A stretch of DNA of 64,000 bases, from NCBI RefSeq assembly GCF_004210375.1, contig NC_134831.1, forward strand, positions 98,889,522 through 98,953,521, in the 5' to 3' direction. Below the pieces are notes generated by a model, which saw only the letters and a list, made by a program, of their open reading frames with translations, was not told the origin of the DNA and ran no database searches. Made by a program: the position numbers and the translations under genes. The DNA is from Tachypleus tridentatus. Taxonomy: Eukaryota. Position 1 is the first letter of the stretch. Each line of letters starts with the position of its first letter. Below are positions 2,382 to 55,825 of this stretch, in pieces.

Positions 2382-3099
2382 AAATTAAAAGGAAACACGA
2401 CGCGAAGTAAATGTAACTAGCTCCACGACCTTCTAAACCATTATTAGAGTTAGACGCCTACATTTTTATTCTTTAGAATGACCTTGCCAGCGGCTAGTAG
2501 AATCAACCACATCCTCTTGTGGCGAATGAAACGCGCCAGAAAAAGACTTACTAGCATCTTTTCCCAGTTAGTATAAAAGTAACAAACATTAGAGTTAGGT
2601 TTGGTCAGGATATACAAAGGGAGTAGTTCTTGTACTCAAGGTTAAAAAGAGAATCAATGGAAACCAGAAACCTACGTCGTATTTTGGTGAATTCCTCACA
2701 CCCATACGAGGAACGTTAGGGTAGAACACTTCACTTTCCTGGCTGACCACCCGTTAAAACCGAGTCAAGTTTGTATAGAAAATGTTTCTTGCAATTAGAA
2801 GACTTACTTTAATATCACAGTATCGCATTTCGTGTATGAAACATCAACACAAGTACACATTATTTCATTAAGTTGTTTCATTGGGTGTTCAGAACAACGC
2901 TACAAAACAATGTTCTGTGTTGCTCACCAGAGTATTGAAACCGTTTATTAAGCCTTAAGGCTTGCAATTGGGTGTAGGGGATAATACATTCAAAACAAAA
3001 TCTTCATAAATATAACTTTTATTTACTTGGTAGTCGAAAAGATACAGCCTTATCAAAAAATTAATCTGTGCAATGTATATTGATAACACTATGTAACAA

Positions 3100-3515
3100 A
3101 ATGTTTACTTTTCTTGTTCCTAGGTAGAAAGTGTTTTCCCAATTACTTATGCCTAAAGTAAATGGAAAAGACCTATTATTCTCTTCAAACTTTGCTTTTG
3201 TGACCTGTATACGTGTATTTAGGGGCTGATACGTGAAAGTGGTTTACATTAGTTGCAGATCTCTTAAAACCACTCGCTTCTAAACATTTTTGTATAACTT
3301 TAGTATAAATACATGTAAATCTTCATATGTTGTTTTATTCAGGCCTTATGTAAATGAAAATGTGTAAATTTGCCTGTTTTTACATAGAAAATAGGTTAAT
3401 TTCTAAATTTCATTATCCAGGTCACAAAAGCAAAGTTTGAGGGGAATAATGACCATTTTCTGTACTTTTACAACATAAACAATTATGAAATAACACATAT
3501 TGTCCAGGAACAGAA
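3100..3515. mobile_element. MITE-like non-autonomous element, copy 1 (about 410 bp). It has roughly 12-bp terminal inverted repeats (cttgttcctagg ... ccaggaacag) and roughly 26-bp subterminal inverted repeats (ctcttcaaactttgcttttgtgacctg / caggtcacaaaagcaaagtttgagg).
   Basis: The whole element recurs at 17165..17580 in opposite orientation at about 85% identity. There is no coding capacity. Confidence 0.65.
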
Positions 3516-4487
3516 TCTGTGATACATAGTGTTATTACAGTGTAACCATATGATTTACCTGATAGTTTTACACACCTGGGTCAGTCCCTTGTAATCAGGA
3601 TGACACGTTTTAATACAAATTTGATTCAAAACCTTATCTTAAACTTTTCGTTGAAAATTCGGGCGACTTTCAGCATACAGCAAAAGCCTAAACTCAAACG
3701 ATTCTCATCGCATATATATCAGAAGGGTCTCTGAATCTATGTATTAAAAGTATGCTGTGAAAGACGAACAAATGTATGTGGTTATATGCTCGAAGTAGTT
3801 CAAAATACGTAATGAATATATTATGAATTAATGTTTGAATCTGAATAAAATACACGACTCTTTGGAATAAAGGGTAAAATAAAACTCTGACATTTTACCT
3901 GAACTTGTATTTCAAAAAAAGGTTAATTTTTCTCTCGACTTGGAAATGCATCTTTACAAAAGTTCAGCTGCACAATAAACCGTTCAACGATAATTTCTAT
4001 TTGTCGAGTGAATTTAAGTAACTCGCCTAAAAAGGTACTTTTTTAAAGTCTTAAAATTTAAAAACAATAACAACAGAACAATCCTTTTATATATAACTAT
4101 ACGAAATGGGTGTCAGGTGAGTAAATTTTTCGTATTTTAAAAAAAAATATTTTTAATTTATTGAGGTTTTCAAATCTAATGTTAGCAAAAAAAATCTGGC
4201 TTTTCTACGCCATTGTAACAATTTTGATAATGAAACCAGAACATCAAAAATGTTCCACTGTCATGCCTCGAAATGTTGTCTTAAATATTAGTAACACACG
4301 TGGTCAGTCGAACGGAATGTCTTAACAAACAGCACTAAGATTTCTCTGCGTGCTCATGTTTTCGACACTGTTTATTGTTTCGGTCAGCAAGAAATATTTT
4401 GCACTTTAAATTCCAACTCTAGAACAAAAGATTAGTTAAACGGAAGTTTTTGGCAGTTTTAGATTTGTGTTTTCTTGTAGCAAAGCC

Positions 4488-4850: not shown

Positions 4851-7480
4851 TAGAGAACAGATAGTCTATTTTGTAGTTATGTGATAAATAACAAGCAACG
4901 TTTACTAGTTGGTTAAACTTGCTATACAATGTGTATGACCTTATTACAAACTCTGTAATTACAGTCCTGATTAAGTAAAAGGGTCTCGATACAATCACTG
5001 CTCCAAAACATTGGGAAAAATCTAGTCGTTACCTTCCTTCTTCCCATACAACACTATGCATGTATATATAGTACAAAATACGTAAATATGTGGGGAAAGT
5101 TCTAATCTCGTTATTCCTTGAAAGGGAAAGTTTATATTGCTGCCTTATAACAAACGATGTTCAAATGAGTGACCACTAGATAAACTCCCAGATGCATCAT
5201 TAGGTTAATCATCAGTCAGGATTGTTCTGAAACGAAACGTTTCACAATGAGCTCACTTAACTTAAAGCATTAATGTATAGAAGTGAGTTACATAAGCTAA
5301 AGAAATGGCTGGAATTTTTTTTTTTTAAATGACATAAGCGGAGCTGGAAACTTATTTACCTAAAAATACCAACCAGCTGTGTTGGTACGTGGCCATGCGG
5401 CCTACATCATCTACTTCCAGGCACCAGACAGATGGTTCAACGCATCACTCATCGTATTACTTAAATAACAAAACAAGAAAACCCGTCTATCTATAGACGA
5501 TTCCAGTTAAGTGATCTCAACTCCAACTATAACCTCAAAACAGAATAAAAAATAGAACCAGTGCATAAAGCAACAAACAGCCATGAAATATATTGTCAGT
5601 TTTCACTGTGAACATAAAAAAATCCAAACGAGCACAACCTTAAAATGTAATGCAATACAATAACACAAAAAACTGCTTAAAATGTACTCTAATCCAATAA
5701 CTATACAAGTTTAAATGTTGCCCTGCTGTCTACGAATAGTAAATAACTGAATTGAGTTGTCAAAATTTAAAACAAAAACTCGCTAATGTATTATTAAAGT
5801 CCATTCGATAGATCCTAGTATTAAAGCATCAAAAGTTCCATTTATTACCAAACCTTTGTGCATAATTTAAATATTTGATTAGGTACACAACTGCTGTTAT
5901 CACATACTGTAGTGATATTATAGTAGACCAGTGCGTGTAGAAGATATCACAATTACATTTTATATTTGTTGTTGTTCTGGGCAAAGCTACACAATAGGCT
6001 AACTGTATTCTGCCCACCATGGTTATTAAAATCCCGTTTTTAACGTTCTAAATGCTTAGACTTGCAGGCGAGACATTGTTGGGAAGGGAGGTTGGACGTT
6101 GATCAACGCGTCAACCTTGACAAGCGACCGTCTGACCAGTAACTGGTATCTTTCACTCTAACTCAAAATTTATTAATGAGTATGGGTCAAATTATATACA
6201 AGGTGCCTTCAATGTCCGTATTCTATCGCGTATAAATGATATTTTTTGTTTATATTTCAGATAAATATAAATAATATATATTGGGTGATTAAACAGATTA
6301 ATAGGATATGTGATATACGTACACAACTTAATAGTACGCAATTTAAACAAATGTTGAAATAAGGGTTAATCACGAATTTAGTCTACAAGTACAGACCTTT
6401 GAAACATCCTGTATTCTTTCTACTGGTGTTTCACTTCATAATCTAACCACATTTCTGAGAATAATTTTCTAGTTAAAACATAATTCATTCTTATTTATCA
6501 CCGTAATTATATCACTTTAAAATACGCAGTTGTTAGCGTTACAACTGTTATTTATTTATGACTTAAGGTACCACAAACACGTAATACGGATTTTTACTGC
6601 TTCTTTAAAAAGAAGTGCACGCTGGGAAATATTTTATTCTATTAAAATTAAACTTTGGCTGAAAAGATTATTCTATTTTAAGCCTCCTTCATTTTAAGTG
6701 TTTCAAAGTGGACTTTTCCTAGATGCTTCTAAATAATAAATGGTTAATATAATTTTTAAGAACATTTTCACAAGATAACTTTGTGAAACTTTGCCGCCTT
6801 CTTTCTTTTGAAAACCTGTTTCAATTAACACACAAATCGATGAAAGTAAATCTGAAACCCAACTTACCAATTGATTTATCACTTGTCACCGAGTTATACC
6901 AGTATCGGGAAATTCCATCCTTAATCAGTAACTTTGGACACAGACAGATCGAAAAACAAGACTTCTTTCTTATAGTATAAATACAGTTTCATTCTAGTAA
7001 GTAAAAGACAAGTGAAAAAACGCCATGCATATATTAAAACCAATAAAAGCTTTAGGTCTAACTTAGTTACAAAAGGAAAGACCTTCATTCTCTATGTAAG
7101 GCGCTGGTGTACAATTGTAGTAAAACATTAAAAAAATAATTATAAGTTACCTAATAATTAAATATTTTTCAGATTATAAGTTTCTTCCTCTGACATACAA
7201 TAAACTCCGGGTATTTTCTCTATATCTTCGTCGACATGTCCTGTATTTGTAAAAGGCACAAAGCAATACACAATGATTTGACCACAATTGGTATTTAAAC
7301 TTGATTTGTAGCGTTGTAAGCCCCATAGATTTATTGCTGTCTTACGAGAGCGTATATCGGCTTCTTTATAAAATTTAAACATTTTTTTCCCTTTAGGTAT
7401 CCGAGACTTATCTTAAAGTTAAGTTAATTAGACTGCTATTACCCATACATTTTTTGTACACTAATAACATGGTAACGTAT

Positions 7481-7745
7481 AATACGCGCATGGCCAGGTG
7501 GTTAGGGTGTTGGACTGGTAATGAGAATGGTCGTGGGTTTAAATCCCTGTCAGACAAAACATGCTCGCCCTCCCAGCCGTGGAAGTATTATAATGGGACG
7601 GTCAAGCCCACTATTCGTTGATAAAGGATTAGGCCAAAAGTTGGTGATGACAAGCTGCCTTCCCTACAGTCTTACACTGCTAAATTATGGGCGGCTAGCA
7701 CAGATAGCCATCGTGTAGTGTTGCGCAAAATTCAAAAAATAAGCC
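7481..7745 (+). mobile_element. tRNA-derived SINE copy C; the reference copy in + orientation.
   Basis: Head catggccaggtggttagggtgttggactggtaatgagaatggtcgtgggtttaaatccc carries A- and B-box-like motifs. The body is ...gacggtcaagcccactattcgttgataaagg.... The tail is gctagcacagatagccatcgtgtagtgttgcgcaaaattcaaaaaataagcc. Confidence 0.8.
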
Positions 7746-8421: not shown

Positions 8422-8672
8422 TGTTTTTTGAATTTCACGCAAAGCTAGCCGTCCCTAATTTAGCAGTGTGAGACCAGAGGGAAGGCAGCTAGTGATCATC
8501 ATCCACAGCCAACTCTTGGGCTACTCTTTTACCAACAAACAGTGAGATTGACTGTCACATTATAACACCTCCACGGCTGAAAGGGCGAGCATGTTTGGTG
8601 CGCCCTGCATTAGAACCCGCGATCCTCGAATTACGAGTCGAACGCCTTAACACGCTTGGCCATACCGGGCCC
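8422..8672 (-). mobile_element. tRNA-derived SINE copy D.
   Basis: Almost full-length match to copies B and C in reverse orientation. Its tail is ttttttgaatttcacgcaaagctagccgtccctaatttagcagtgtgagac. Confidence 0.8.
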
Positions 8673-13469: not shown

Positions 13470-13796
13470 TTGATGTCCCAGAAGCTTTTGACATGGTGTG
13501 GCATGAGGTTTCAGATATAAACTACACAATATTAGCATTCTGACCCCATGTTTAACATGTTCTCACTTTTTATCACTAATGGCTGGAGTCCCTCAAGGAT
13601 CCATACTAAGCCCCATATTTTACAATGTATTTGTTAACAACATACCCCCCCACACACACACTTCTTTAATGTATAGATTAACCTTCCAATATGGAGATGA
13701 CATAGCTATGTGGAGTGCATCAAGTAACACTCATAATGTCACTTACAGAGTTCAAGCCTCACTTAATACAACATCAGAATGGTGTAATAAATAATG
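13470..13796 (+). mobile_element. Non-LTR retrotransposon RT fragment (pseudogene).
   Basis: Translations show ..FDVPEAFDMVWHE.. and ..AGVPQGSILSPIFYNVFVNNIP...QYGDDIAMWSAS, i.e. the RT motifs KAFDxVxH, GVPQGSxLSP and YADD, spread over two frames. Confidence 0.7.
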
Positions 13797-15873
13797 TGTT
13801 ACCTTTACCAAAACATAAGCAGAATAAATAGGTCCAGGAGAAAACTTAGGAATTTAAAACTACAATTAAGTAGTACAACAGCCAATATATTAAGTTCATA
13901 GGTCTAGCCTTTCCATCCAACATATCCTGATATTAATGACATTAACAGCAGAACTTGTGCCAGAATTAATTATCTTAAGACATATTGGTGACTTCAACAA
14001 AGGTTGCTCCATCAAAACCATTATCACAATTTATAAAGCTTACTTTTGACTCCTTTTCAAGTAATGGTAACGTAGTAACAAGACAAACAACCAATATAAC
14101 AAAATACAGAATCTACAGAATTAAATACCCCCCCTAAAAAAAAAAAATCTTAAGTCCTGTCAACAATCAAATAAACACAATATCTCCTAATTTATAAAAA
14201 TACTTTATGATGATGTCAGCAAATTAATAAGAAAACAAAAACTATAGAAGTCAAAACTCAAACAAATTCCATGTAATGAAAGTTCTAAGTACTAAAAGGT
14301 TTTAAAGGTATCCATAAAAATGGGCCCCCTCATGGGAAGAAAGAGAAGCTTTGTGCAAGTCTTAAACATATTGCTTATCTTGACCTTGGCATTTCTGTTA
14401 GTGATTTTAAAATTTGCTACTATCAAATACTATAATACAGAGAAAACATTATAAGCTATAAAACCAGTGTCTATTACTAAAAACTAAGAGAACCTGACGT
14501 GTCCTACTCTCAGATAGCAAAGACAAACATTATGGTAATGAAATACCTGTTCTTTATTGTTTTTGTATATTTATTAACACAATCACAGACATGAAACATT
14601 TAAAATGGTAATTGTGGATGCACAGTAACAACTTGTTTTGGACTTGTAGTTGCACAATTTTTAACCATAATAACAAGCTACTAACCTTGAAGTAATTTTA
14701 ATTTGTTTGAAACTTAGTAAAAGTTTAAACACCTTAGACAATAGATTGGCTTGTTTCAAAGTTACATAATAAGTATCTATGTCCATAATTTTAAACCATT
14801 TGCTTCTTTTGAAATTAAGCATTAAAAGTTATTTGTGGTCTGTCCACTATCAGTATTAATCCTTTCGGCGAGATTGGCGACTGCAGTTGAACTGAAGTCT
14901 CAGTACGGCAGGCAACCTTCCTTTATTCCTGTTCTTCTTATGTATTTAATTTAACATATATAGTATTGGGTACAATCACTGAACATTTCAGGGACTTTTG
15001 TTGAGTTATTGCCAAGATATCATGTTTTTAGTACTGATACCGTAATTAGTTGAAGTATCAAACATATATATTCAGCACCATACCAAACATTCAAAGTTGT
15101 TATTTAGTGCTGAAAGGGGTAAAACCCATTTTCTGGCAGTGTGAGTCTACAGAGGTACTGTTGTTCCACTGGAGGGCAGTTTTGAACTGAAAAAATTACT
15201 TGGGTTATTCTAAGATTTGAAGTACCCATGACCTCAATGTGGAGTGTAATTTTTTCTTTGTTTTTGGTAACAGGATACAAACCATTGACCTTGTTTCCAC
15301 AGTCCAACACACTAACTATAAGGCCAAGCTCAACCCTTTAACGTTAGGAAACGTTAGTCTGTAATTTCTGGAGTTCAAGAAAAGCTGTGTATGATAAATA
15401 TACTATCTGAATTTTGAGAAAACTAATTTAAAAACTGCAAGATTAGTAGCAACCACCATTTACAAATACTATCTTAAACATATTTCTATGGAAAATACAA
15501 CCACTGTTACTGCACGTCCTCCAAACATAATTTGAATAAAAAGTTCTTTGAGATAACAATTTCAATCAATGGTAACAACAAAAAAGGCTTCCTTTGATTT
15601 AGCCTAATCTAAGAAGTAACAAACATGTTATTATTTGTTTAATGTTGCTAGAGAAATAGTGAGTAAAGAAAACAATCTACACATTTCAGAAAAAACAACA
15701 CAAATATCAATATGGTGTCGAAGTTACAACTGCATCAAAACATTGCAGTAAATTACTAACTAACCATAAATGGTTTTATTATCTTAATTTCTATTAACTG
15801 TTACCAAGACTAATAATAGAAATATTTATTGTGTAACCCATTGGATGATGATATAACAAAATTACATAATTAA

Positions 15874-16318: not shown

Positions 16319-17164
16319 CTGGAAATAAATCATTTATAAAAAAAAAGCACACTTCTATAGAGTTTAAAATTAATTCTATATGTGACCTTCAATCTATAAT
16401 ACAATTATTGATAGTAATTAATATATTTCTATTTCATCAAACATTTAAATTAAACTCGAAACAACTATGCTGGAGGTGAACATGTAGTTAACTTTAACAG
16501 GAAATGATACATTACATTTCTTTTAAAATTAAAAAACAAACATCAACAAATATTAAAATTAATAGAAAACTATAATGAAAAATTTGTAGTTTTCTAGTTT
16601 TAACACACATTTATTTCTTGCTTTTTATTTATTTTTACTCATAAAATTATATATTTATTTAAAGGTTTCTCATGTTTCTTTTACTTTTATGAGTTACTCC
16701 AAATTAATCGCATAGAAGTTTCAAACATACAGTTTCATATAAAAATGCCTCATCACTCAAATCTTTAAGTTTTCAATGCATTCTGTGATTAAGACAGACA
16801 TAACATACATTTATAAAAACTAAGTAAAGTTTCATGTTCTCAAAAGGGCATCTTATAAATGTGATCTGCAAAAAACATTATAATGGATTTGAGCAAAAAT
16901 AACAGATACACAAAATGAATACTTTATCAAAATCAAAGCTATTAGTGGTGTTCTACTTACAAGTTGAGAGAACACAATGTAGAGAACACAAGAGAAATAT
17001 AAATCATTGATTTATTCTTTTTCACTTTATGTCTCTTTAAACATAGACTCGGACATGGAACTGACCTCATAACCAGTTTGTGCTTATTATGGTTTTTATG
17101 CTGTTACTTTGAAATCAGTAAGCATATGTTCACAAAATTTGATAGATTACACTATGTAACACAA

Positions 17165-17580
17165 ATTTTGTTCCTGGATAGTGTGTGTTATTTCTTAACT
17201 GCTTATGTTGTAAAAGTACAGAAAATGGCCATTATTCCCTTCAAACTTTGCTTTTGTGACCTGGATAATGAAATTTAGAAATTAACCTATTTTCTAGGTA
17301 AAAACAGGCAATAAAACAACATATGAACCAAGATTTACATGTATTTATACTAAAGTTATACAAAAATGTTTAGAAGTGAGTAGTTTTTCGAGATTTGCGA
17401 CTGTAATGTAAATCACTTTCACGTATCAGCCTCCAAATACAGTCTCCCATCATGTTTTCGTTATACACTCCCAGGTCACAAAAGCAAAGTTTGAACAGAA
17501 AAATAGGTTTTTTCCATTTACTTTAGGCATAAGCAATTGGGAAATAACATTTTGTGCCCAGGAACAAGAAAAAGTAAAAA
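17165..17580. mobile_element. MITE-like element, copy 2, inverted relative to copy 1. It lies in the MVP intron between exons m and l.
   Basis: Its termini are ttgttcctgg ... ccaggaacaag. The internal inverted repeats are cccttcaaactttgcttttgtgacctgg and caggtcacaaaagcaaagtttgaac. Its reverse complement aligns with 3100..3515 along the full length. Confidence 0.65.
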
Positions 17581-17785
17581 TGTTGTTACTTAGTGTTATC
17601 AATAAATATTACAATGCATTAGTACACAAAATTTGATTTGTTTTACTGAGTCTTAAGATTTGCCAACTAATGTTTTTCTTATGCCTTTTTTCTTCTTGCA
17701 TATTTCTCATCCAAGAAGCAAAATTATTTTATTTTTAAGATTATAAATACTTTTATGCATCAGAAAAGTTTCATATTTCACATAC

Positions 17786-19759: not shown

Positions 19760-20061
19760 CTAAAGGAAAAATAAACACAGGGAAAGTAAGAAAAAACACG
19801 TGTATTTATACACACCATGATTTTTTAGAGAATTAGAAAACTACTTTCTGTTTGATAATATTATAGTTCATTACACTTGATCATATAAAACACACAAATT
19901 ATTTTAGATTCTTCTTACATCTAACCTACAGCTTACTCTGGCTCATAATAAAACAATATTCATCCCTCCAAAGAATTTTTTATTTGTCTTCAAAAACTGT
20001 GGCATGTTACTAAACTGCACAGCATTTTAATATCATGTAAGAAATAAGTTCCAAGACGTAC

Positions 20062-20305
20062 TGCTTCAATTCTCAAAGCCTCTCCTTTTAATTTGGCTTT
20101 TTCCACTTCCGATCTACCCTCTATCAGTTGTGACTCGACACGGCTCTGGGCCTCTGCTTTGGCTTGCCCACAGCTCTCCACCACCATGCTGGAAGCTTGT
20201 AACTCAAGTAGTTCTTTCCTAGCACGTTCAACTTCCACTTCGTCCGCGATCTTCTGTCTTTCGAGATGCCCTTTGGCTTCTTGTTCACGCCTTTCTGCCT
20301 CGTGC
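20062..20305 (-). CDS. MVP: MVP exon k. Encodes (R)[81 protein letters not shown]. This is the shoulder and cap-helix coiled-coil region.
   Basis: Acceptor ttgttggcag|GCACGAG and donor GAAGCA|gtacgt. Matches human [80 protein letters not shown]. Confidence 0.85.
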
Positions 20306-20344
20306 CTGCCAACAATGTTTGAAGTTAGTATTTGTTCATTTCGA

Positions 20345-20485
20345 TTTTCATGCAAAGCTACCTATCTGTGCTAGCTAGCCCTAACTTAGCAGTGTAAGAC
20401 TAAAGGGAAGGCAGTTAGTCATTACCACCAACTGTCAAGTCTTAGGCTACTCTTTTACCAACACATAGTGGAGTTGGCCATCACA
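20345..20485 (-). mobile_element. tRNA-derived SINE copy E. It is truncated to the tail half and abuts the 3' end of the CR1-like LINE.
   Basis: The sequence catgcaaagctacctatctgtgctagctagccctaacttagcagtgtaagactaaagggaaggcag... matches the family tail and body. The head is absent. Confidence 0.65.
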
Positions 20486-20499
20486 TTATAATGGAAAAT

Positions 20500-23340
20500 A
20501 GATGATACATCAACACAATCAGTTCTCTCTACAATCTCAAACACTTCAATCAAACTGCCCCTAAATCTTCTTTTATTAAGAAAACAGAATTTGAAAGACA
20601 TGACAACCCCTCCATCCCAGTTACCCTTCTCTGAACCTTTCCCAACAATTCAATGTCTTTCCTAAGGTAAGGAGCCCAAGGCTGAACACAGTATTCCAAA
20701 TGTGGACTAACCAGTGACTTAAACAATGAAATTATGACCTCTTTAGAATTTCTGGAAATACAACTAAAATCCTATTTACTTTACCACTAACAACAGCACA
20801 CTGCTTGGATAGCTTTAGAAACCATCTGTTGCATCCTTTCCTTCATGACACTGTTACGGTAATTCCAATTCAAGTTACCCACATACAATATCTTGCATTT
20901 ATAATAATTAAAATCCATCTGCCATTTATTCACCCAACTCACTGAATGATCTAAATCATTTTGTAAAGCAGCAGCTACCAACATCCAAGACCTTAATATC
21001 ATCAACAAATGTAAGTAATTTATTGACCATTCCTTTATCTACGTCACTGATGTAAATCAAAAAGAATAAAGGTCCAAATACTGACCCCTGAGATACCACA
21101 CTTGTGACATTAATCCAGTTTGAGTGAACTCCATTTGTAACAACCCTTTGCTTCCATCCATCCATCCACTCTTCTATCCAACATGCTAACTTATCACCCA
21201 CACCAAGAGACTTTTTTTTTACAAGCCTTTTATGTAGCACCTTGCCAAATACTTTCTGAAAATCCAGATACACCAAATCCACACCCTTATGCTCATCTAC
21301 ATAAGCAGTAACCTTTTCAAAGAATGTTGAAAGATTTGTAAGGCATGATTGTCCCTTAAAGAAAACATGTTGACCATCCAATAATATTCTAAATTTTGTT
21401 AAATGACTTTGGAAAGCATCCTTTAACAGACTTTCCAACCCCCCCCCCCCCATCTGATTAGTGTCTTCACATAACTCAACTGTCAAACCAACCCCCCCAT
21501 CTGATCAGTGTCTTCACAAAACTCAACTGTCAAACCAACCCCCCCATCTGATTAGTGTCTTCACATAACTCAACTGTCCAATTCGCAACAGATAGTTCTT
21601 GTTGCACTCTTTTAAACCTAGTTCTTTTGAAATCTGAAACCAATATATCATTCTTTATTATCTTCATATGCAACAAAACATTGACCCTAGTAGAGCAATG
21701 ATTACTTGTACCCAGACGTTCCCCATTATCCACCCACTCAATCATTTGTATAATAGAAGTTAACAATAAATCCAAAATATTATTGAATCTAGAAGGTTCA
21801 TTGACTAATTGGTTAAGAAAGCCACCCTGAACAGTTTACAAACAAAACAAACTTTCCTCCCTCATGGTTTGACTCTTGCATTTCCCACTCTACATGTCTG
21901 AATTTAAAATCAGCCATAATAATGACCAGCTGAAATATTAACCGTATTGTAAAGTTTCTCACTAATTTCATCAATATCATTTGGTGGTCTGTAACATACT
22001 CCCACTTCTCCCTTTATACTCATTAATATCATTTGGTGGTCTGTAACATACTCCCACTTCTCCCTTTATACTCATTAATATCATTTGGTGGTCTGTAACA
22101 TACTCCTACTTCTCCCTTTATACTCATTAATATCATTTGGTGGTCTGTAACATACTCCCACTTCTCCCTTTATACTCATTAATATCATTTGGTGGTCTGT
22201 AACATACTCCTACTTCTCCCTTTATACTCATTAATATCATTTGGTGGTCTGTAACATACTCCCACTTCTCCCTTTATACTCATCAATATCATTTGGTGGT
22301 CTGTAACATACTCCTACTTCTCCCTTTATACTCATTAATATCATTTGGTGGTCTGTAACATACTCCCACTTCTCCCTTTATACTCATCAATATCATTTGG
22401 TGGTCTGTAACATACTCCCACTTCTCCCTTTATACTCATTAATATCATTTGGTGGTCTGTAACATACTCCTACTTCTCCCTTTATACTCATTAATATCAT
22501 TTGGTGGTCTGTAACATACTCCTACTTCTCCCTTTATACTCATTAATATCATTTGGTGGTCTGTAACATACTCCCACTTCTCCCTTTATACTCATTAATA
22601 TCATTTGGTGGTCTGTAACATACTCCCACTTCTCCTTTATACTCATTAATATCATTTGGTGGTCTGTAACATACTCCTACTTCTCCCTTTATACTCATTA
22701 ATATCATTTGGTGGTCTGTAACATACTCCTACTTCTCCCTTTATACTCATTAATATCATTTGGTGGTCTGTAACATACTCCCACTTCTCCCTTTATACTC
22801 ATTAATATCATTTGGTGGTCTGTAACATACTCCTACTTCTCCCTTTATACTCATTAATATCATTTGGTGGTCTGTAACATACTCCTACTTCTCCCTTTAT
22901 ACTCATTAATATCATTTGGTGGTCTGTAACATACTCCCACTTCTCCCTTTATACTCATTAATATCATTTGGTGGTCTGTAACATACTCCCACTTCTCCCT
23001 TTATACTCATTAATATCATTTGGTGGTCTGTAACATACTCCCACTTCTCCCTTTATACTCATTAATATCATTTGGTGGTCTGTAACATACTCCTACTTCT
23101 CCCTTTATACTCATTAATAAAAACCCAAATGGATTGAATCTTCTTGCTGTTATCTTTAACAGGATGTAACTCACATTTAACATACAAAGTCACTCCCCTT
23201 CTATCCACTTTAATAGCCTGTAACCTTGTATTTCAAAGAAACCTCCATAATAAAAATGATCTGTGTTTAACCATGTTTCAGTTATTTCCATTACATTAAA
23301 ATCACCCATTCCTACCAGTGCTCTAAAGTCATTATATTAT
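20500..23340 (-). mobile_element. CR1-like non-LTR retrotransposon (LINE), degenerate. It has an endonuclease domain at roughly 21600..23340 that is interrupted by the 52-bp array. The RT N-terminal domains are lost and replaced by a roughly 55-bp triplication at 21440..21600. RT motifs and a C-terminal region follow at 20560..21486.
   Basis: Minus-strand translations show: ITETWL...YRPP...IIMADFKFRHVEWE...LDLLLTS for the endonuclease; FFKGQSCLTNL...VDLVYLDFQKVFGKVLHKRL...VVTNGVHSNWINVTSVVSQGSVFGPLFFLIYISDVD...FVDDIK for the RT; and LQNDLDHSVSWVNKWQMDFNYYKCKILYVG...SLFKSLVSPHLEYCVQPWAPYLRKDIELLGKVQRRVTGM at the 3' end. A C13 run lies at 21438..21450. Confidence 0.8.
21962..23118. repeat. Tandem minisatellite, 52-bp unit (ctcattaatatcatttggtggtctgtaacatactccYacttctccctttata), about 22 copies. 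It is embedded in the CR1-like LINE endonuclease region.
   Basis: Period 52 bp. The reverse-complement unit translates to IKGEVGVCYRPPNDINE, the conserved YRPP segment of a LINE endonuclease domain. Confidence 0.9.
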
Positions 23341-24180
23341 TTATTACAATAGTAGTAGTTAAGCCTATCCTTATAACTACTTCTATACTTATTTCCTATG
23401 CTAAACTTTTCACTACCCCTTATTCTTTTCACATTTAGTTTTTCCTGGCCTTCACTGCTGTCTAGTTATTGTTTAAAACTTTCCTTACAGCTGAGTTAAT
23501 AAGTCTTAGCAAACAAGCCAGCCCCTACCTTATTTAAATGTAAATTCTCCAGTCCAAAAAAAAAAAAAACTCTGTTCTTCATTCTTCCACTGAACTAATC
23601 CCACAAGTCCAACCAGCCAATCTGCTCATCTTTACATACTAACCTAAGCCTAACATTTAGCTCTAGTGTCCTACTTCATCCACACAATTAATTCTGGGGA
23701 GCATCCGTGACAAAATTAAGTTATGGCCCTCATCTTTAAATGTCTTTATTAACCCTTTGTACTTATTATTTCTTCTTACCTACCTATCCCTACATTATTA
23801 GGCCCTACCTGCAGTGCAAAAACTGCATTTCTGCTAGCCCCCTTCATTATATCTCCTGCTTTGTCAGTTACATCCTTCACTTGTGCCCCTGGGTAGCATA
23901 AACCGATTCATAATTCCCTATTTACCCTAATTTATGGTATGTTAAAAACTTTTACAACTCTACATAAAACAACACTGTATTCATTGATATTACATTTTCA
24001 ACTCTCAATAAAACACCCTTTTTACTGAGAACCACACAGTTACCAGTCATAACAAAGTAAGAACCCTTTATCTTGTAACAATGAAAGAGGAAAGACACAC
24101 GATTGTATACACATTCCAAATATGACCCTAGCAAAACATGTTTCCAGTTGCAGGTTAATTAGAAAACAGAAAATGCTTAC

Positions 24181-24392
24181 CTTGCAGTAGCCTCTAGACT
24201 CTGTGTAGTTATTTCAATAGCCAGCTGTACAGATCTCAGTAACGAGTCTCTTGTTCTCTGATCCACAGGTTCTACACTTTGGATGTCTACACTAGTGATT
24301 ACTAGGTTGTTCTGAGGAAACATGAACTGTTTTCTCATCCTAAGATTCTCGTCGTATCCAAACACAGCCGTGCAGATTATTTTTGCAGAGTT
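24181..24392 (-). CDS. MVP: MVP exon j. Encodes [70 protein letters not shown](R).
   Basis: Acceptor ttgcatacag|AACTCT and donor GCAAG|gtaagc. Matches human NSARIIRTAVFGFE...[50 protein letters not shown]. Confidence 0.9.
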
Positions 24393-38851: not shown

Positions 38852-39108
38852 TTTGTATTCAATTTTGCACAAAGTTACTTAAAGAATATTTGCACTAGCC
38901 TTCCCTAATTTAGAACAGAAGAGGGAAGGCAACTAGTAAACACCACCTACTCTTGGACTACTATTTTACCAATGAACAGTGGGATTGACCATAACATTAC
39001 AAGGTCCCCACAGCTGAAATGACGAGCATTTGTGTGATAGAAATTCTAACCCACAAACTACAGAATGTGAGTCAAGTGCCCTAACCACCAAGCCAAGTAA
39101 CATTTTAA
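38852..39108 (-). mobile_element. tRNA-derived SINE copy F, diverged.
   Basis: The tail is ttttgcacaaagttac...cttccctaatttagaacagaagagggaaggcaactag and the body is ..ccaatgaacagtgggattgacc.. The head is degenerate. Confidence 0.65.
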
Positions 39109-39556: not shown

Positions 39557-39743
39557 CTTAACTGATTCTTTAAAAAGAAAAAGAGAAAAATACTATTTAT
39601 AAAAACTCTTGTACAGCTACAAGAGCCATTAAGTTTATATCAGATACATCCAAAAAACAGTAAGTATTTTTAGATATAATCTTGTTTAACTCTAGAATTC
39701 AATTTAGTGATATTTGGCTAAAAAGTTAAGTGAAGAAAAATAC

Positions 39744-39970
39744 AGGGAACAAAACATGTCTATAGTCTCCTGAAGTAACACTAATAACATGGAACAAAAC
39801 ATGTCTATAGTCTCCTGAAGTAACACTAATAACATGGAACAAAACACGTCTATAGTCTCCTGAAGTAACACTAATAACATGGAACAAAACACGTCTATAG
39901 TCTCCTGAAGTAACACGAATAACATGGAACAAAACATGTCTATAGTCTCCTGAAGTAACACTAATAACCA
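39744..39970. repeat. Tandem repeat, 45-bp unit (ggaacaaaacatgtctatagtctcctgaagtaacactaataacat), 5 copies. It ends 3 bp from the MVP exon f donor site.
   Basis: Period 45 bp. The last unit runs into catacccttccgg, which is the gtatgg donor on the minus strand. Confidence 0.95.
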
Positions 39971-39973
39971 TAC

Positions 39974-40729: not shown

Positions 40730-40900
40730 ATCTAAATAATCTGAGGACAAACTATAAAACTAATATTATTTTATTTACAAAAAACAAACATAAAACAGTG
40801 TATTATTGGGCATAAGATATGAAGTGATACATGGATCCTAAATTTGAAACATTTTAAAGACCTAAATTATAAATAAATCATAAAGAAATAATTATGTAAC
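40730..40900. repeat. Dispersed repeat copy. The partner copy lies at about 41800..41970 at roughly 85% identity.
   Basis: The string ..ctgaggacaaactataaaactaatattattttatttacaaaaaacaaacataaaacagtgtattattgggcataagatatgaagtgatac..aaattataaataaatcataaagaaata recurs at 41800..41970. Confidence 0.7.
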
Positions 40901-41334
40901 TCAAGAATTAACTTTGAATGTTAATATTTCTTTAAAAATATCACATACTTTCAATGGAAAAACTTGTGTGAGGAGCAAGAGATACCTTAGTTGTACTGAT
41001 ATCAACATTAAGTTATTCATTCATCGTGAATCGTGCATAAAATATTCAGTTCCAGACCAGATAATGTTGTTTGTAAAACTCTTGTATATAAGCCATTATT
41101 TGTAATAACTGTTATTATAAATTGTATTGTTGCTTGTATATTAAAATATATTTATGTTAAGAAAGAAAACAGCGTGTATCAATCTTACTGGCAAGCATCA
41201 TAAATTTGATAAATATTAACATTCAATTAACTTCTAAATTAAAATTAAAATTTCCAGCTATTGGAAATTGTAAAAATGTACATAACATAATAAATCAGAG
41301 ACTTGTCCTACGTAAATTATAATACATAACAACA

Positions 41335-41470
41335 TACACACTTCAATCAATATTCTTGGTATGTTGTTTTTTAATTGCTACAGCACGTATTGATAAATTA
41401 CCATTATAAAGCTAATTCACATACCAAGAATATTGATTGAAGTGAGTACGTTGTTACAGCAATTAAAAAA
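41335..41470. repeat. Nested inverted repeat / palindrome (cttcaatcaatattcttggtatg ... cataccaagaatattgattgaag, with the outer pair ttttttaattgctacagcacgta / tacgttgttacagcaattaaaaaa).
   Basis: Seen directly in the sequence. The arms are about 23 bp with a roughly 50-bp spacer. Confidence 0.7.
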
Positions 41471-42173
41471 AAATATATTTTTCAAACTTAAATAAACAAA
41501 CAATAAATTACAGAAATGGAATGTCACATAATTTTACAGGACATTAGATAAAACAAATGAATCACATCATAGAAGGATAATGTCAGATTAAACTATTGTT
41601 TCTTCATCATTACATAGTACAGTTAACAAATTAAGAAAAGATTATACTATCACTTAGCGAAGTAGCTAATTCCCTACTCATATATGCTGTATTTCATACA
41701 CCCTATTTTATTTCTGTAATATAAGAAACACTGTGTGCAGTTCACTCAAACTGGATTAATGTCACAAGTGGGCCCAGTTTCAGTCTCAATGATTAAACAC
41801 AAAATAACCTGAGAACAAACAATAAAACTTGTATTTTATTTACAAAAAAACAAACATAAAACAGTATATTACTGAGCATAACATATAAAGTGATACACTT
41901 ATTCTAAATTTGAAAAATTTTAAAGTCCTAAATTATAAATAAATCATAAAGAAATATTTATGTAACTCATGTCTGTAACTTAGCACCATGTATATTCCTT
42001 TAGAGATCAAACCATATAATCAAACATATACTTAAAATTTTGTGATATTTAAAACCTCACATTTAGAAATATTACAATCCACAAATTTATTTATAAAACA
42101 TTAATAATTTGCACAACAAAATTGTGTTTTATTCATGATGAAAGCATAAAATTTGCCAAAAAAAGTACACAAA

Positions 42174-42503: not shown

Positions 42504-42861
42504 TGTATTTGAAACACCCTCTTTCATCTCTGTAATAAATGAAAAACTGTCAAAATAAATATTCAAGCAAAAACTGTCAATAGACTTGAGCTGATTGATG
42601 CCATTTAAGTGATCAAATTAAGATTGATTGGCTATGATTTCAAAAATGTCAAAATTTGCTTTTTGTGTGGTTAAGAATTACCTATTAAATTCTTTTTCTA
42701 TATTTTTTGTCTAATACTGTGTTGTTTTTTTGTATAGCTATAGTTTAGATTATAAGTTACTATTCCATTTGCACTTATTTCATAAAATGCCAAATGCATA
42801 TGTACAAACCAAACTAGTAATTATAACAGTGATGTTGAAAAAACCCACTTGTAGAGAAAAA

Positions 42862-42982
42862 TATATATGTAAAAACGGCTCGTTTAGGTTGAGAAAATTT
42901 TTTACGTAGAGGAGCTAACAACGTTTCGACCTTCCATGTAAAAACTTTTCTCAACCCAAACGAGCTGTTTTTACATATATAT
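42862..42982. mobile_element. Small hairpin (foldback) element with a 37-bp inverted repeat (2 mismatches) around a 47-bp loop.
   Basis: The left arm is atatatatgtaaaaacggctcgtttaggttgagaaaa. The right arm reverse complement is atatatatgtaaaaacagctcgtttgggttgagaaaa. Confidence 0.6.
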
Positions 42983-43129
42983 TTAAACTGGTAATTAATC
43001 ACATAAAACCGAGTGATCAGAATTGAAGTTATAAACAAAAGATATAAAATTATCTATACAAGTGTGAGGGATAAGTTATCAAATTCGATAGAAGAGTGGC
43101 TGGACTGATGGAAGCAAAATGTTGTCACA

Positions 43130-44100
43130 AACTGAGTTCATTCAAACTGGATTAATGTCACAAGTGGTGTACCTGAGGTCCCAGTCTCAGAACCTTTTTT
43201 ATTTTCATCAGTGACACAAATGAAGGAATGATCAATAAGTTATTTAACTTTACAGATGATATTAAGGACTTGGATGTTGCTAGCTGTGAAGAGGATGCTT
43301 CTGATCTATAAAAATATTTAGATCATTTAGTAAATAAATGTCAGATGGGTTTTAATTATACTAAATGCAAGATACATGTGGGTAATCACAATTCAAATTA
43401 TAAGCATAATTTGGATAGAAATAAACTAAACAGTGTTATGAAGGAAAGTGTTCTTGGTGTAATAACCACGATTAATCAGTATCTGAAACCATCCAAGCAA
43501 TGTCCTGTTGCTTGTGGTGGAGCAAATAGTATTTTGGGTTGTATGTACAGAAATACTGAATACAAGTCTAAATATGTTATAATTTCATTGTTTAGATCAC
43601 TGGTTAGCCCATATTTGAAATACTGAGTTCAGTTTTGGGCTCCTTACCTAAGGAAAAACATTGAATTGTTGGAAAGGGTTCAGAGAAAGGTAACTAGGAT
43701 GGTGTCTGGGAGGGAGTGTTGTTATGACTTTCAAATTATTTTCTCTTAATTAAAGAAGAGTTTGGACAGTTTGATTGAAATGTTTGAAATTATAGAGAGA
43801 ACTGATAGTGTTGATGTATTATCTATTTTTATATTTAACAATGAAAATAGTAGTTAAAGGGGACACAAATATAACTTTTGGCAGGGTAAGAATCATTATC
43901 AGCTAGACAGTTTCATTTTTCTAACAGGTTGGGTGCCCTTTGGAATGAATTGTCTTCATACATTATAGAGGTAATAAATTTAAGTAAGCTTAAATTAAGT
44001 ATATGAATGATAAGGGTTGGCTTTAAGATTTTTAAAAAAATATTTTAGCTTAATTTAGAAGATGGAATAGTTGAGATGGAACAACAGGTCCCTATTGTCC
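43130..44100 (+). mobile_element. CR1-like LINE 3' fragment (RT C-terminal region and 3' end), plus strand.
   Basis: The translation reads ...INKLFNFTDDIKDLDV...LDHLVNKCQMGFNYTKCKIHVGNHNSNYKHNL...SLFRSLVSPYLKY*VQFWAPYLRKNIELLERVQRKVTRMVSG, about 80% similar to the minus-strand copy at 20560..21010. Confidence 0.75.
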
Positions 44101-44277: not shown

Positions 44278-44409
44278 CGGCAGGACAGTATCATCTGTAA
44301 AAGTTTCTTTGGCTCGTAGGATCAATCCTTCATTTTCTCCCAGAACACAGATGTCTTGAATACCATTTTCTAGTCTTTCTCCAGGCATAAGAAAGAAAGA
44401 TATTTCACC
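44278..44409 (-). CDS. MVP: MVP exon e. Encodes [44 protein letters not shown].
   Basis: Acceptor atcaatag|GGTGAA and donor CTGCCG|gtaaca. Matches human [41 protein letters not shown]... Confidence 0.85.
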
Positions 44410-44654: not shown

Positions 44655-46750
44655 CAATTTCTTATACAGTGGGCTTATGAAATAAGAGAGGCAGTTATAA
44701 TTAAAACATTCAACATACTTTAACCAATTTCTTATGCATACAGTGGGCTTATGAACTAAGAGACACAGTTATAATTAAAACATTCAACATACTTAACCAA
44801 TTTCTTATGCATACAGTGGGCTTATGAACTAAGAGACACAGTTATAATTAAAACATTCAACATACTTTAACCAATTTCTTATGCATACAGTGGGCTTATG
44901 AACTAAGAGACAGTTATATTAAAACATTCAACATACTTTAACCAATTTCTTATGCATACAGTGGGCTTATGAACTAAGAGACACAGTTATAATTAAAACA
45001 TTCAACATACTTAACCAGTTTCTTATGCATACAGTGGGCTTATGAAATAAGAGACACAGTTATAATTAAAACATTAAACATACTTTAACCAATTTCTTAT
45101 GCATACAGTGGGCTTATGAACTAAGAGACAGTTATATTAAAACATTCAACGTACTTTAACCAATTTCTTATGCATACAGTGGGCTTATGAACTAAGAGAC
45201 AGTTATAATTAAAACATTCAACATACTTTAACCAATTTCTTATACATACAGTGGGCTTATGAAATAAGAGACACAGTTATAATTAAAACATTCAACATAC
45301 TTAACCAATTTCTTATACATACAGTGGGCTTATGAAATAAGAGACACAGTTATAATTAAAACATTCAACATACTTAACCAATTTCTTATTCATACAGTGG
45401 GCTTATGAACTAAGAGACAGTTATATTAAAACATTCAACATACTTTAACCAATTTCTTATGCATACAGTGGGCTTATGAACTAAGAGACACAGTTATAAT
45501 TAAAACATTCAACATACTTAACCAGTTTCTTATGCATACAGTGGGCTTATGAACCAAGAGACACAGTTATAATTAAAACATTAAACATACTTTAACCAAT
45601 TTCTTATGCATACAGTGGGCTTATGAACTAAGAGACAGTTATATTAAAACATTCAACGTACTTTAACCAATTTCTTATGCATACAGTGGGCTTATGAACT
45701 AAGAGACAGTTATAATTAAAACATTCAACATACTTTAACCAATTTCTTATACATACAGTGGGCTTATGAAATAAGAGACACAGTTATAATTAAAACATTC
45801 AACATACTTAACCAATTTCTTATACATACAGTGGGCTTATGAAATAAGAGACACAGTTATAATTAAAACATTCAACATACTTAACCAATTTCTTATTCAT
45901 ACAGTGGGCTTATGAACTAAGAGACAGTTATATTAAAACATTCAACATACTTTAACCAATTTCTTATGCATACAGTGGGCTTATGAACTAAGAGACACAG
46001 TTATAATTAAAACATTCAACATACTTAACCAGTTTCTTATGCATACAGTGGGCTTATGAACCAAGAGACACAGTTATAATTAAAACATTAAACATACTTA
46101 ACCAATTTCTTATACATACAGTGGGCTTATGAAATAAGAGACACAGTTATAATTAAAACATTAAACATACTTTAACCAATTTCTTATGCATACAGTGGGC
46201 TTATGAACTAAGAGACAGTTATATTAAAACATTCAACATACTTTAACCAATTTCTTATGCATACAGTGGGCTTATGAACTAAGAGACACAGTTATAATTA
46301 AAACATTCAACATACTTAACCAATTTCTTATACATACAGTGGGCTTATGAAATAAGAGACACAGTTATAATTAAAACATTCAACATACTTAACCAATTTC
46401 TTATGCATACAGTGGGCTTATGAAATAAGAGACACAGTTATAATTAAAACATTCAACATACTTTAACCAATTTCTTATTCATACAGTGGGCTTATGAACT
46501 AAGAGACAGTTATATTAAAACATTCAACATACTTTAACCAATTTCTTATACATACAGTGGGCTTATGAAATAAGAGACACAGTTATAATTAAAACATTCA
46601 ACATACTTTAACCAATTTCTTATACATACAGTTGGCTTATGAACTAAGAGACACAGTTATAATTAAAACATTCAACATACTTTAACCAATTTCTTATACA
46701 TACAGTGGGCTTATGAAATAAGAGACAGTTATATTAAAACATTCAACATA
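44655..46750. repeat. Tandem minisatellite, 70 to 76-bp unit (ttaaccaatttcttatRcatacagtgggcttatgaaMtaagagacacagttataattaaaacattcaacatact), about 29 copies. It is contiguous with the 3' end of MVP exon d.
   Basis: On the minus strand each unit reads ...AAGAAATTGGTTAAAGTATGTTGAATG..., which is the last 15 nt of exon d plus its GTATGT donor. Confidence 0.95.
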
Positions 46751-46751
46751 C

Positions 46752-46988
46752 TTTAACCAATTTCTTTTGGCCTAGCTGAGGGGTCCCATCTTCATTAAGA
46801 GGATCAAGAATAACACAGTACTGACGCTTAGATAATGTTGTAATAGATACCACACCGACCACCTGTTCATACACACCCGGTATGTAAGTTTCTGTGTCAG
46901 TCATTTTGATCAACCACTCCTGTCCATTTCTTCTTTCGACTCCCAGCTCATCACAAAATGTACAAGTCGCCCTTACGTGTACTGCTTC
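46752..46988 (-). CDS. MVP: MVP exon d. Encodes [79 protein letters not shown].
   Basis: Acceptor tctgtttcag|GAAGCAG and donor GGTTAAA|gtatgt (phase 0). Matches human [79 protein letters not shown]. Confidence 0.9.
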
Positions 46989-55470: not shown

Positions 55471-55825
55471 TTCTGATAAAAATTAGCAAAAAAATGATTT
55501 GCTATATGCAAACTAGACAGATATTGCATCTATGATGAACAGAGACCTAAACACCATTAAACTTGTACATCAGATATTTAAGATAAAATCAAATTTAAAA
55601 CAATAATAATAATAAAATAGTGCTAAAATACAACAGGCCACCTATGTTCTAGACTTATTAAAAAAATAAAATAAAATAAATAAATAAAAAACTTATGAAA
55701 GAACAATATAAATGGACATTGCCCTGAAAAGGGCCACATTTAAAGTTGTGCTATTACTTCAGCCATTTTGTGTTTACTCTAAATGTATTAATCAGGCCAT
55801 TCCAACTAAGAAATGGAAGGAGGAA

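Follow-up and report, generated by a model that had tools for sequence, protein, structure and literature searches.

A 52-bp minisatellite within a decayed CR1-like LINE copy in a major vault protein intron

The window analysed here, a 64-kb stretch of DNA, carries, on its minus strand, a major vault protein (MVP) gene. Of the two exons that enclose the intron considered here, the upstream one (24181..24392, minus strand) matches Pfam PF11978 and ends at the donor AAG/GTAAGC; the downstream one (19996..20305, minus strand) follows the acceptor ..TTGGCAG/G. Mapping of these exons was helped by a related ENA metagenome contig (L001). The best matches to the MVP show about 60-76% identity, and the only named one among the 120 listed is from Nematostella (63%). 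The intron extends from 24180 to 20306 (3,875 bp), and 30% of its length is taken up by a tandem array with a 52-bp period, which lies inside a copy of a LINE. Intronisation, in which the LINE itself would have become the intron, was considered. The intron has a branch point of its own, with a TACTAAC motif at 20330-20324, and its acceptor lies 33 nt past the end of the LINE; on the 5' side, about 800 bp of the intron are unassigned. When the region was searched for structured RNAs and tRNAs, there was no Rfam match at gathering thresholds and there were no tRNA genes.

The LINE copy is encoded on the minus strand and is split by the array. The N-terminal part of its endonuclease (EN; 23119..23366) is represented by LNYYYCNK, MEITETWL, GYRLL, DRRGVTLYVK, and QSIWVF, and carries a stop and a frameshift. 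Beyond the array, the C-terminal part of the EN together with the start of the linker (21579..21967) contains IIMADFKF, which is a degenerate GDFN motif, LDLLLTS, TSNH, which is a degenerate SDH motif, and FKRTRF..VANW. The reverse transcriptase (RT), the C-terminal region of ORF2, and the 3' tail occupy 20339..21444 (minus strand), as delimited by the PF00078 match, by tblastn, and, for the end of the tail, by an alignment of SINE and LINE tails. The RT motifs LESLLKD, QHVFFKGQSC, YLDFQKVF, SQGSVFGP, and FVDD are recognizable, and the C-terminal PHLEYC / RRLRGDLI region is represented by PHLEYCVQPW and RRFRGSLIEVF. The tail ends with ..GAAAATCGAAA at about 20339 and has no poly-A; its last 150-200 bp (approximately) are shared by five tRNA-derived SINE-like copies in the window.

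TRF reports the array at 21968-23119, with 22.2 copies of 52 bp, 98% matches, 0% indels, and a score of 2206. This agrees with the unit length and the approximately 22-fold amplification given in the original prediction, which had set the array start 6 bp too low (21962). In the minus-strand register, the array (21968..23118; 1,151 bp) consists of 22 units, running from 23118 down to 21976, and ends with 8 nt of a further, incomplete unit, ATTGATGA (21975-21968). With head-to-tail units in the range of roughly 10-100 bp, it is a minisatellite. The unit on the minus strand is ATTAATGAGTATAAAGGGAGAAGTGGGAGTATGTTACAGACCACCAAATGAT; its translation is IKGEVGVCYRPPNDINE, as predicted from the reverse complement, and it encodes (I)NEYKG/EVGVCYRPPND of the LINE endonuclease. 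Each unit also includes GTATGT and TTACAG, which might act as cryptic splice sites. Two variants only occur among the 22 units. Unit position 25 is A in 10 units and G in 12, and units 15 and 17 have a G at position 4. In addition, unit 10, when read in register, is 51 nt long, the only such unit. Compared pairwise, the units differ by 1.5% on average, and the array is thus young or homogenised. The string of variants along the units is AGGGAAGAAGGAAGGAGAGAGG, with GAA-GAA and (GA)n blocks; these blocks, and the recurrence of the position 4 variant two units apart, point to exchanges that involved several units at a time.

The array disrupts the EN ORF. Its period of 52 is not divisible by 3, and each frame contains 32-36 stops across the array; an autonomous element could therefore not contain it. 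The 52-bp unit does not recur elsewhere in the 64-kb window, a search of JGI metagenome contigs for an exact 22-nt pattern from the unit gave 0 matches, and none of ten ORFs from the window, those of the array included, is present in a collection of 15 billion proteins. The array is non-coding and without evident function, and it is most simply regarded as a neutral intronic VNTR. DNA secondary structure was considered as a driver of slippage and was rejected, the unit being not unusual in this respect (z ~0 on both strands and for the dimer). There is no feature in the sequence which accounts for the amplification of exactly this 52-bp EN segment.

When the array is collapsed to a single unit, the translation matches Pfam PF14529 (Exo_endo_phos_2) with E=3.4e-10, above the gathering score. 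The match begins exactly at the V of VCYRPP, inside the unit, and both flanks are colinear with intact CR1-type ORF2 endonucleases, without gain or loss. Each of the five intact ORF2 proteins that were aligned has a single YRPP segment. The residues invariant in these five are retained (E29, T30, W31, W80, G91, Y94, R95, P97, M122, D124, F125), with G91, Y94, R95, and P97 located inside the unit. Seven intact ORF2s, used as tblastn queries, gave minus-strand HSPs that are colinear between 22099 and 20467; one of these (P0004, residues 85-244, at 22099-21554) runs from the array into the downstream flank. The downstream part matches the RT profile PF00078 with E=4.7e-15, covering profile positions 30-193 of 205. 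All peptides by which the original prediction had traced the endonuclease through the flanks were found in minus-strand ORFs: ..MEITETWL.., which includes ITETWL, in 23190-23309, QLVIIMADFKFRHVEWE in 21813-21980, and (L)DLLLTS in 21530-21775. These ORFs are in different frames because the LINE copy carries frameshifts. The unit is homologous to an internal segment of a transposable element (TE) which continues on both flanks, and the array is thus TE-derived; its predicted derivation from the YRPP region of a CR1-like endonuclease is borne out.

A protein search returned 189 CR1-type ORF2 homologues, which come from turtle, bird, Xenopus, and manta and are 26-43% identical; the best ORF2 matches (36-42%) include turtle, bird, Xenopus, and Mobula. 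Relatives at the family level were not found in this search, which retrieved only distant CR1 ORF2s with at most 42-43% identity. It is established that the LINEs of birds and turtles are CR1 elements. The assignment as CR1-like (CR1/L2 group) is made by similarity ranking and stays above the level of a placement in CR1 versus L2, Rex1, or other related clades. At that resolution, homology supports that the unit is an endonuclease-coding segment of a CR1-like non-LTR element.

This LINE copy is dead. At least six frame changes and several stops are distributed across EN, RT, and the C-terminus, and catalytic motifs are altered (GDFN to ADFK, SDH to SNH). In addition, there is a gap between about 21668 and about 21447, which corresponds to ORF2 residues ~239-526 of P0005 and 156-417 of P0047. 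For the latter protein, tblastn places residues 64-155 at 21823-21548 and residues 418-571 at 21447-20989. The absent ~260-290 aa are mostly the EN-RT linker and the first RT motifs, and not the N-terminal half of the RT, which was originally thought to be replaced by a 55-bp triplication. That triplication holds insofar as the peptide TVELCEDTNQMGG is indeed encoded three times, once in each frame; the period, however, is 47 bp, with 2.9 copies at 21445..21578 (minus strand; TRF and boundaries). This second tandem repeat originates from the linker just after ..ANW and adjoins the internal deletion.

The presumed proto-unit is bracketed by an imperfect direct repeat of 8 nt on the minus strand. 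The upstream copy, ATTAATGA, is at 23111..23118; the downstream copy, ATTGATGA, is at 21968..21975 and runs on into the unique EN sequence ..DIDEISEKLYNTV... The two copies agree at 7/8 positions, and the array length modulo the period is also 8. A short direct repeat, as expected for an origin according to Haber and Louis, is thus present. The bracketing repeat is imperfect (7/8), and so short that it might be a chance occurrence. In 21/22 units, among them both edge units, a GGG shifts the reading by +1 with respect to the flanking EN frame. Unit 10 has GG instead and reads ..YKGEVGVCYRPP.. in frame, which corresponds to KGEV..YRPP of P0005. The presence of GGG in all units but one, including those at both edges, indicates that the template was most likely an already broken copy. 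The frameshift could in principle also have originated inside the array and then spread through homogenisation.

The array is not an isolated feature of this locus. The window contains 23 tandem arrays when the LINE-derived one is included, and these account for 38.9% of the bases. The other 22 have periods of 25-104 bp. One, at 44664-46766 and with a period of 73 bp, reiterates the end of an MVP exon together with its splice donor GTATGT 29-fold. A comparison of the 23 consensus units revealed no mutual similarity. A shared motif or carrier element behind the 23 arrays was therefore rejected, since the consensuses are unlike each other and an array-masked self-comparison shows no common flanking repeat. 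A strand-compositional bias common to the arrays was looked for and not found. Because the arrays are of unrelated sequence, and one of them stems from an exon end plus splice donor, array formation is not TE-specific. Array generation does not depend on the sequence, and the LINE just happened to lie where it acted. The region is generally prone to minisatellite formation, and so, probably, is the genome as a whole.

The array, the origin of its unit from a LINE copy that is dead, the direct repeat, and the context are all observed; from them we infer an order of events and a mechanism of slippage or unequal exchange. A CR1-like non-LTR retrotransposon would have entered the MVP intron in sense orientation. 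The insertion would then have decayed, acquiring frameshifts and stops, mutations in its catalytic motifs, and an internal loss of about 0.8 kb. The 52-bp EN stretch around YRPP, bracketed by ATTAATGA...ATTGATGA, may have been duplicated via replication slippage or unequal exchange between the short repeats. Out-of-register exchange or slippage, moving one to three units each time, could have expanded the duplicate to 22 copies and kept it homogeneous. We regard it as likely, with good confidence, that a 52-bp EN segment of a dead intronic CR1-like LINE was amplified in place in this way, by a process that is not specific to TEs. Local amplification is favoured, on indirect evidence, because of the period that is indivisible by 3 and the stops, the shared frameshift, and the bracketing 8-nt repeat, and also because the units differ by only 1.5%, versus 27% for the window's two CR1 copies when compared with each other (73% identity; tail copies, 72-82%), and because 22 unrelated arrays are found nearby. 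Of the original interpretation, which is partly supported, the in-place amplification is favoured by the dead state of the copy, the shared frameshift, and the direct repeat.

CR1-type LINEs recognise their own 3' tail. As a tRNA-derived SINE family with the same CR1 tail is present in the window, trans-mobilisation of defective RNAs is plausible, and the array, or its first duplications, might have been present in the source element already and have been spread by a trans-mobilised, non-autonomous CR1 subfamily as a multi-locus repeat. Internal tandem repeats do occur in some TE consensuses, e.g., LTR12 and L1PA (PMC3389668). We nevertheless consider such an origin unlikely. Within the window, the unit is confined to a single locus (the other two CR1 fragments are without the EN region and hence uninformative on an array in other copies), and the arrays of the window arise in place from arbitrary sequence, even from an exon-intron junction. 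The 1.5% unit diversity is far below the divergence between LINE copies. With its period of 52, its 32-36 stops per frame, and the destroyed EN ORF, the array is also not a function-compatible internal repeat of a transposing element.

An origin in one step at insertion is less probable still, be it by template switching or jumping of the RT during target-primed reverse transcription or by rolling-circle copying of a small circle. Ahmed and Liang propose that retrotransposition may initiate many TE-derived tandem repeats, given that the classical models account for only about 6% of them (PMC3389668), and the very high unit identity would fit a single event. However, an array as old as the decayed insertion should have diverged equally unless it was continuously homogenised, the patterned distribution of the two variants indicates several multi-unit events, and the shared frameshift suggests that the template was already defective. 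Reverse transcription would also leave the 22 non-TE arrays nearby unexplained. We therefore judge this origin very improbable. Finally, although a peptide of 17 residues is weak evidence by itself and YRPP-like strings can arise by chance, a coincidental likeness, with an unrelated minisatellite inserted into the LINE fragment or arising beside it, is effectively refuted by the EN alignment through both flanks of the collapsed array, by the Pfam match starting within a unit that holds G91, Y94, R95, and P97, and by the intact ORF2 HSPs crossing from the array into the downstream flank.

Probably amplified in place from a dead LINE, the array is a real but ordinary TE-derived minisatellite, of a kind which is well documented, also for coding sequence of CR1 and L1. 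Among human minisatellites and satellites, 7,276 arrays (23%) are TE-derived, 601 of them from L1 (Ahmed & Liang, 2012; PMC3389668). One illustrated case is a 52-bp x 17 array from AluJo, and a subset is flanked by direct repeats of 5-20 bp (mode 7 bp), in agreement with the Haber-Louis model (PMC3389668). The array described here resembles these in that an internal retroelement segment was amplified in place by local head-to-tail expansion and in the short flanking direct repeats, which the human arrays show in a subset. It differs in its donor, the EN of a CR1-like LINE in what appears to be a non-vertebrate genome, and in its 22 copies compared to a human mode of about 2-3 (PMC3389668); arrays are also far denser around it than in the human genome. 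In the Haber and Louis (1998) model, as it is summarized in PMC6947457 and PMC3389668, slippage or unequal crossing-over first duplicates a motif that has a direct repeat of 5-10 bp at its flanks, and expansion follows. The bracket formed by ATTAATGA/ATTGATGA and the 8-nt remainder correspond to this model, which we apply on the basis of the array's anatomy, whereas the 7/8 agreement of the repeat deviates from it.

CR1 sequence also serves as the unit of chicken repeats, namely HinfI (partial CR1 ORF2 plus 3' UTR) and the Cen satDNAs (CR1-C). According to PMC9659126 and PMC6947457, these are true satellites, which are long and partly centromeric and have large units with a whole CR1 fragment, in contrast to the 52-bp sub-motif and 1.15 kb found here. 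PROsat from Phodopus roborovskii and Pvc20 from harbour seal, which are L1 ORF2-derived satellites, share the LINE ORF2 source but represent another LINE clade, satellite-scale amplification, and chromosomal spread, as described in PMC9659126. A satellite would extend over tens of kb or more and/or many loci, at high copy number in the genome. A transition from TE to satellite, as initially claimed, is therefore an overstatement for an intronic array of 1,151 bp that occupies one locus within the window, with no further copies and no spread there.

Taken alone, the array carries little weight, being a further clean example of a TE fragment that served as raw material for a minisatellite. It is nonetheless a case of teaching quality, because proto-unit, direct repeat, pre-existing frameshift, and variant pattern can be read from the sequence. 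The context is more interesting: nearly 40% of a housekeeping-gene locus consists of independent minisatellites, one of which holds 29 repeats of a functional splice donor. Two questions follow, namely what makes this genome so prone to forming arrays and how splicing deals with them. We tentatively suggest, as a possibility of rather low probability, that the transcribed introns of this organism are subject to an unusually active process which generates minisatellites independently of sequence, the LINE-derived array being one of its visible products. In the literature on genomes rich in intronic minisatellites, we found no description that identifies the present case. If such a process were genome-wide and undescribed, it would imply a lineage with a distinctive replication/repair or recombination regime, and a dated dead LINE would provide an internal clock for the birth and the turnover rates of arrays. 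An exon-junction duplication similar to that in the 73-bp array is seen in the MVP gene of a related species.

Tandem Repeats Finder places the array at 21968-23119, with a period of 52, 22.2 copies, 98% matches, no indels, and a score of 2206. The tandem array noticed in the original prediction, which had been made from sequence alone, is thus borne out with minor corrections. In the minus-strand register, 22 units run from 23118 down to 21976, and an 8-nt partial unit (ATTGATGA, 21975-21968) ends the array, followed by unique sequence. The units have 52 nt in 21 of 22 cases and 51 nt in unit 10. Only two unit positions show substitutions: position 25 is A in 10 units and G in 12, and position 4 is G in units 15 and 17. 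Compared in pairs, the units differ by 1.5% on average. Translation of the minus strand yields IKGEVGVCYRPPNDINE, the same peptide as originally reported. The unit length of 52 is not divisible by 3, so the reading frame shifts between successive units; every frame of the array has 32-36 stops, and open stretches reach at most 59 codons. The unit showed no unusual single-strand structure.

For domain analysis, the flanking frames were joined across the array, which was collapsed to a single unit. The N-terminal part of this construct matches PF14529 (endonuclease-reverse transcriptase; E=3.4e-10), with the match starting precisely at the V of VCYRPP, and the downstream part matches PF00078 (reverse transcriptase, RT; E=4.7e-15). 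A database search returned 189 ORF2 homologues with PF03372/PF14529 plus PF00078 architecture (26-43% identity), among them proteins from turtle, bird, Xenopus, and manta ray. When seven intact ORF2s were compared to the window by tblastn, colinear minus-strand matches extended from 22099 to 20467. Upon alignment with the collapsed endonuclease (EN), each of five intact ENs has a single YRPP segment, and the invariant EN residues G91, Y94, R95, and P97 fall within the amplified unit. ITETWL, IIMADFKF (a degenerate GDFN), LDLLLTS, and TSNH (a degenerate SDH) are found at the expected EN positions. Since Pfam, tblastn, the EN alignment, and the motif positions agree, we consider the LINE origin secure: judged from these comparisons, the 52-bp unit is certain to derive from a LINE EN-coding segment, as had been proposed. 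Similarity and the C-terminal PHLEYC/RRFRGSLIEVF region justify the designation "CR1-like", which is to be read in this sense rather than as a clade-level phylogenetic assignment.

A second tandem repeat (21445-21578) has a period of 47 and 2.9 copies. The peptide TVELCEDTNQMGG is indeed present three times, with one copy in each frame, but the period of 55 bp originally given is incorrect. The source of this repeat is the linker directly after ..VANW; in tblastn, the alignment of residues 64-155 of the intact CR1-type ORF2 protein P0047 extends across the first copy to 21548. The repeat adjoins an internal deletion, with ORF2 residues ~239-526 of P0005 (a further intact comparator), equivalent to 156-417 of P0047, being absent. 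The claim that the N-terminal half of the RT is lost is too strong because the deletion affects mainly the EN-RT linker and the first RT motifs, and the PF00078 match spans profile positions 30-193 of 205. This LINE copy is dead: it has at least 6 frame changes and several stop codons in the EN, RT, and C-terminal regions, its catalytic motifs are mutated (EN alignment), and ~0.8 kb is missing (tblastn).

An imperfect 8-nt direct repeat brackets the proto-unit, with ATTAATGA at its start and ATTGATGA directly past its end. This is the anatomy expected under the Haber-Louis model, in which repeats of 5-10 bp give rise to the first duplication by slippage or unequal exchange (PMC6947457, section 3.1; PMC3389668, section 3.4). 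The upstream EN frame (..QSIWVFINEYKG) continues in unit 1 as RSRSMLQTTK* and not as EVGVCYRPP, the frames before and after differing by one extra G (GGG vs. GG). With its GG, unit 10 reads ..NEYKGEVGVCYRPP.., like KGEV..YRPP in intact P0005. As 21 of 22 units, both edge units among them, have the frameshifted GGG form, the amplification template was most likely already a broken LINE copy. Written as a string of unit variants (AGGGAAGAAGGAAGGAGAGAGG), the array shows blocks of GAA-GAA and (GA)n, and its two position-4 variants are separated by two units; this pattern suggests that two or three units at a time were exchanged on several occasions. The unit diversity of 1.5% is far below LINE-copy divergence, so that the present units either coalesce much later than the LINE insertion or are continually homogenised. 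We thus consider it likely that the array was amplified in place: the 8-nt repeats would have permitted an initial duplication by slippage or unequal exchange, and repeated exchanges of two or three units within the array would have followed. That the array was instead inherited from a non-autonomous source copy of the LINE is improbable in our view; the unit has no second copy elsewhere in the 64-kb window. The protein search retrieved no family-level relatives of the LINE, the unit pattern had no match in metagenome contigs, and none of ten window ORFs was present in the exact-match protein collection.

The window carries the gene for the major vault protein (MVP) on the minus strand. PF11978 matches one MVP exon, and a search with a cutoff of E <= 1e-10 gave 655 homologues. 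The best 120 are 54-76% identical and, with even the closest at only ~60-76%, include no close annotated relative of the organism. Comparison with L001, a related ENA metagenome contig with an MVP gene, revealed about twelve exon segments from 48366 to 16223 (approximate coordinates, minus strand: 48366-48238, 46991-46767, 44409-44293, 40117-39971, 34785-34525, 33851-33648, 32520-32416, 24392-24181, 20305-19996, 19714-19562, and 16324-16223). The intron that harbours the LINE (24180 to 20306) is 3,875 bp long, and the array makes up 30% of it. The LINE is in sense orientation; 33 nt separate the end of its tail from the acceptor, and a TACTAAC motif follows shortly after the tail. This intron and that at ~33647-32521 are missing from the MVP gene on L001 (10001-10471 and ~7224-7590, respectively), where the coding sequence on either side forms an uninterrupted ORF (..EAAARHEAERLEQ..). 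The related lineages thus differ in intron presence, with the LINE-bearing intron among the lineage-specific ones. Read in the sense of the MVP pre-mRNA, every 52-bp unit (21976-23118, minus strand) has a GTATGT resembling a splice donor and a TTACAG resembling an acceptor, potentially providing 22 cryptic splice signals inside the intron.

Of all bases in the window, 38.9% belong to tandem arrays, of which there are 23 (periods 25-104 bp, 2-130 copies each, 89-100% matches). The largest has a 63-bp period and covers at least 8.2 kb (55825-63995), continuing past the window end. The 23 arrays share neither similarity among their consensus units nor a compositional skew, and array-masked self-comparison revealed no common flanking element. 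A 73-bp x 29 array (44664-46766, minus strand) starts at an MVP exon-intron junction and occupies nearly the whole intron between the exon end at ~46767 and the exon start at 44409. On the sense strand, its unit starts with GAAATTGGTTAAA|GTATGT: the final 13 nt of the exon before it (..KKLVK), followed by the donor. Each unit thus carries an exon end and a 5' splice site, resulting in ~29 identical donor sites in tandem; splicing from any but the first would insert 73n nt, with stops. A 45-bp x 5 array (39742-39968) begins 8 nt past the donor of the exon ending at 39971. On L001 (4657-4943), the orthologue of this exon and its GTAAC donor are tandemly duplicated, with periods of 47-105 bp and ~2 copies. 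The fact that these arrays are unrelated, and that one includes an exon junction, indicates that array formation acts on any sequence present. The LINE fragment is a substrate, not a cause, of array formation in the window. The rate of minisatellite formation may be unusually high across the MVP locus.

Minisatellites derived from transposable elements (TEs) are already well documented, and the array is a further instance. In human, 7,276 minisatellites/satellites (23%) are TE-derived, 601 of them from L1 (Ahmed and Liang, PMC3389668); most TE-derived arrays expanded locally and occupy a single locus, and direct repeats of 5-20 bp flank 300 of them (PMC3389668). In chicken, CR1-derived tandem repeats include the HinfI repeat, which has part of ORF2, and the Cen satDNAs, and the satellites PROsat and Pvc20 originate from L1 ORF2 (PMC9659126, PMC6947457). 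Unlike satellites, the array has only 1.15 kb, is intronic, and represents a single locus in the window, which places it outside the satellite definition. While the LINE origin holds with certainty and amplification in place is likely, the "TE-to-satellite transition" of the original prediction is therefore overstated, and the process is not TE-specific.

Further CR1-like RT fragments are found on the plus strand at 43046-43962 (tblastn; 73% DNA identity to the studied LINE over 43062-43829) and at 13561-13812. Short 33-35-bp pieces at 41736-41771 are 97% identical to LINE RT sequence. A tRNA-derived SINE-like family (758-980, 1476-1738, 7486-7738, 8444-8663, and 38895-39095) carries box A/B-like GGCCAGGTGGTTAAGGCG...GGGTTCGAATCC in its head; ARAGORN called no intact tRNA. 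Its 3' ~150-200 bp correspond to the 3' tail of the CR1-like LINE (20339-20492), and tail copies within the window show 72-82% mutual identity. Because of this shared tail, the family is likely the partner SINE of the CR1-like LINE. Array-masked self-comparison also detected repeat pairs at 3069-3535 vs. 17146-17613 (inverted, 80%) and 40734-40934 vs. 41802-42002 (84%), and palindromes at 41327-41456 and 42859-42984.
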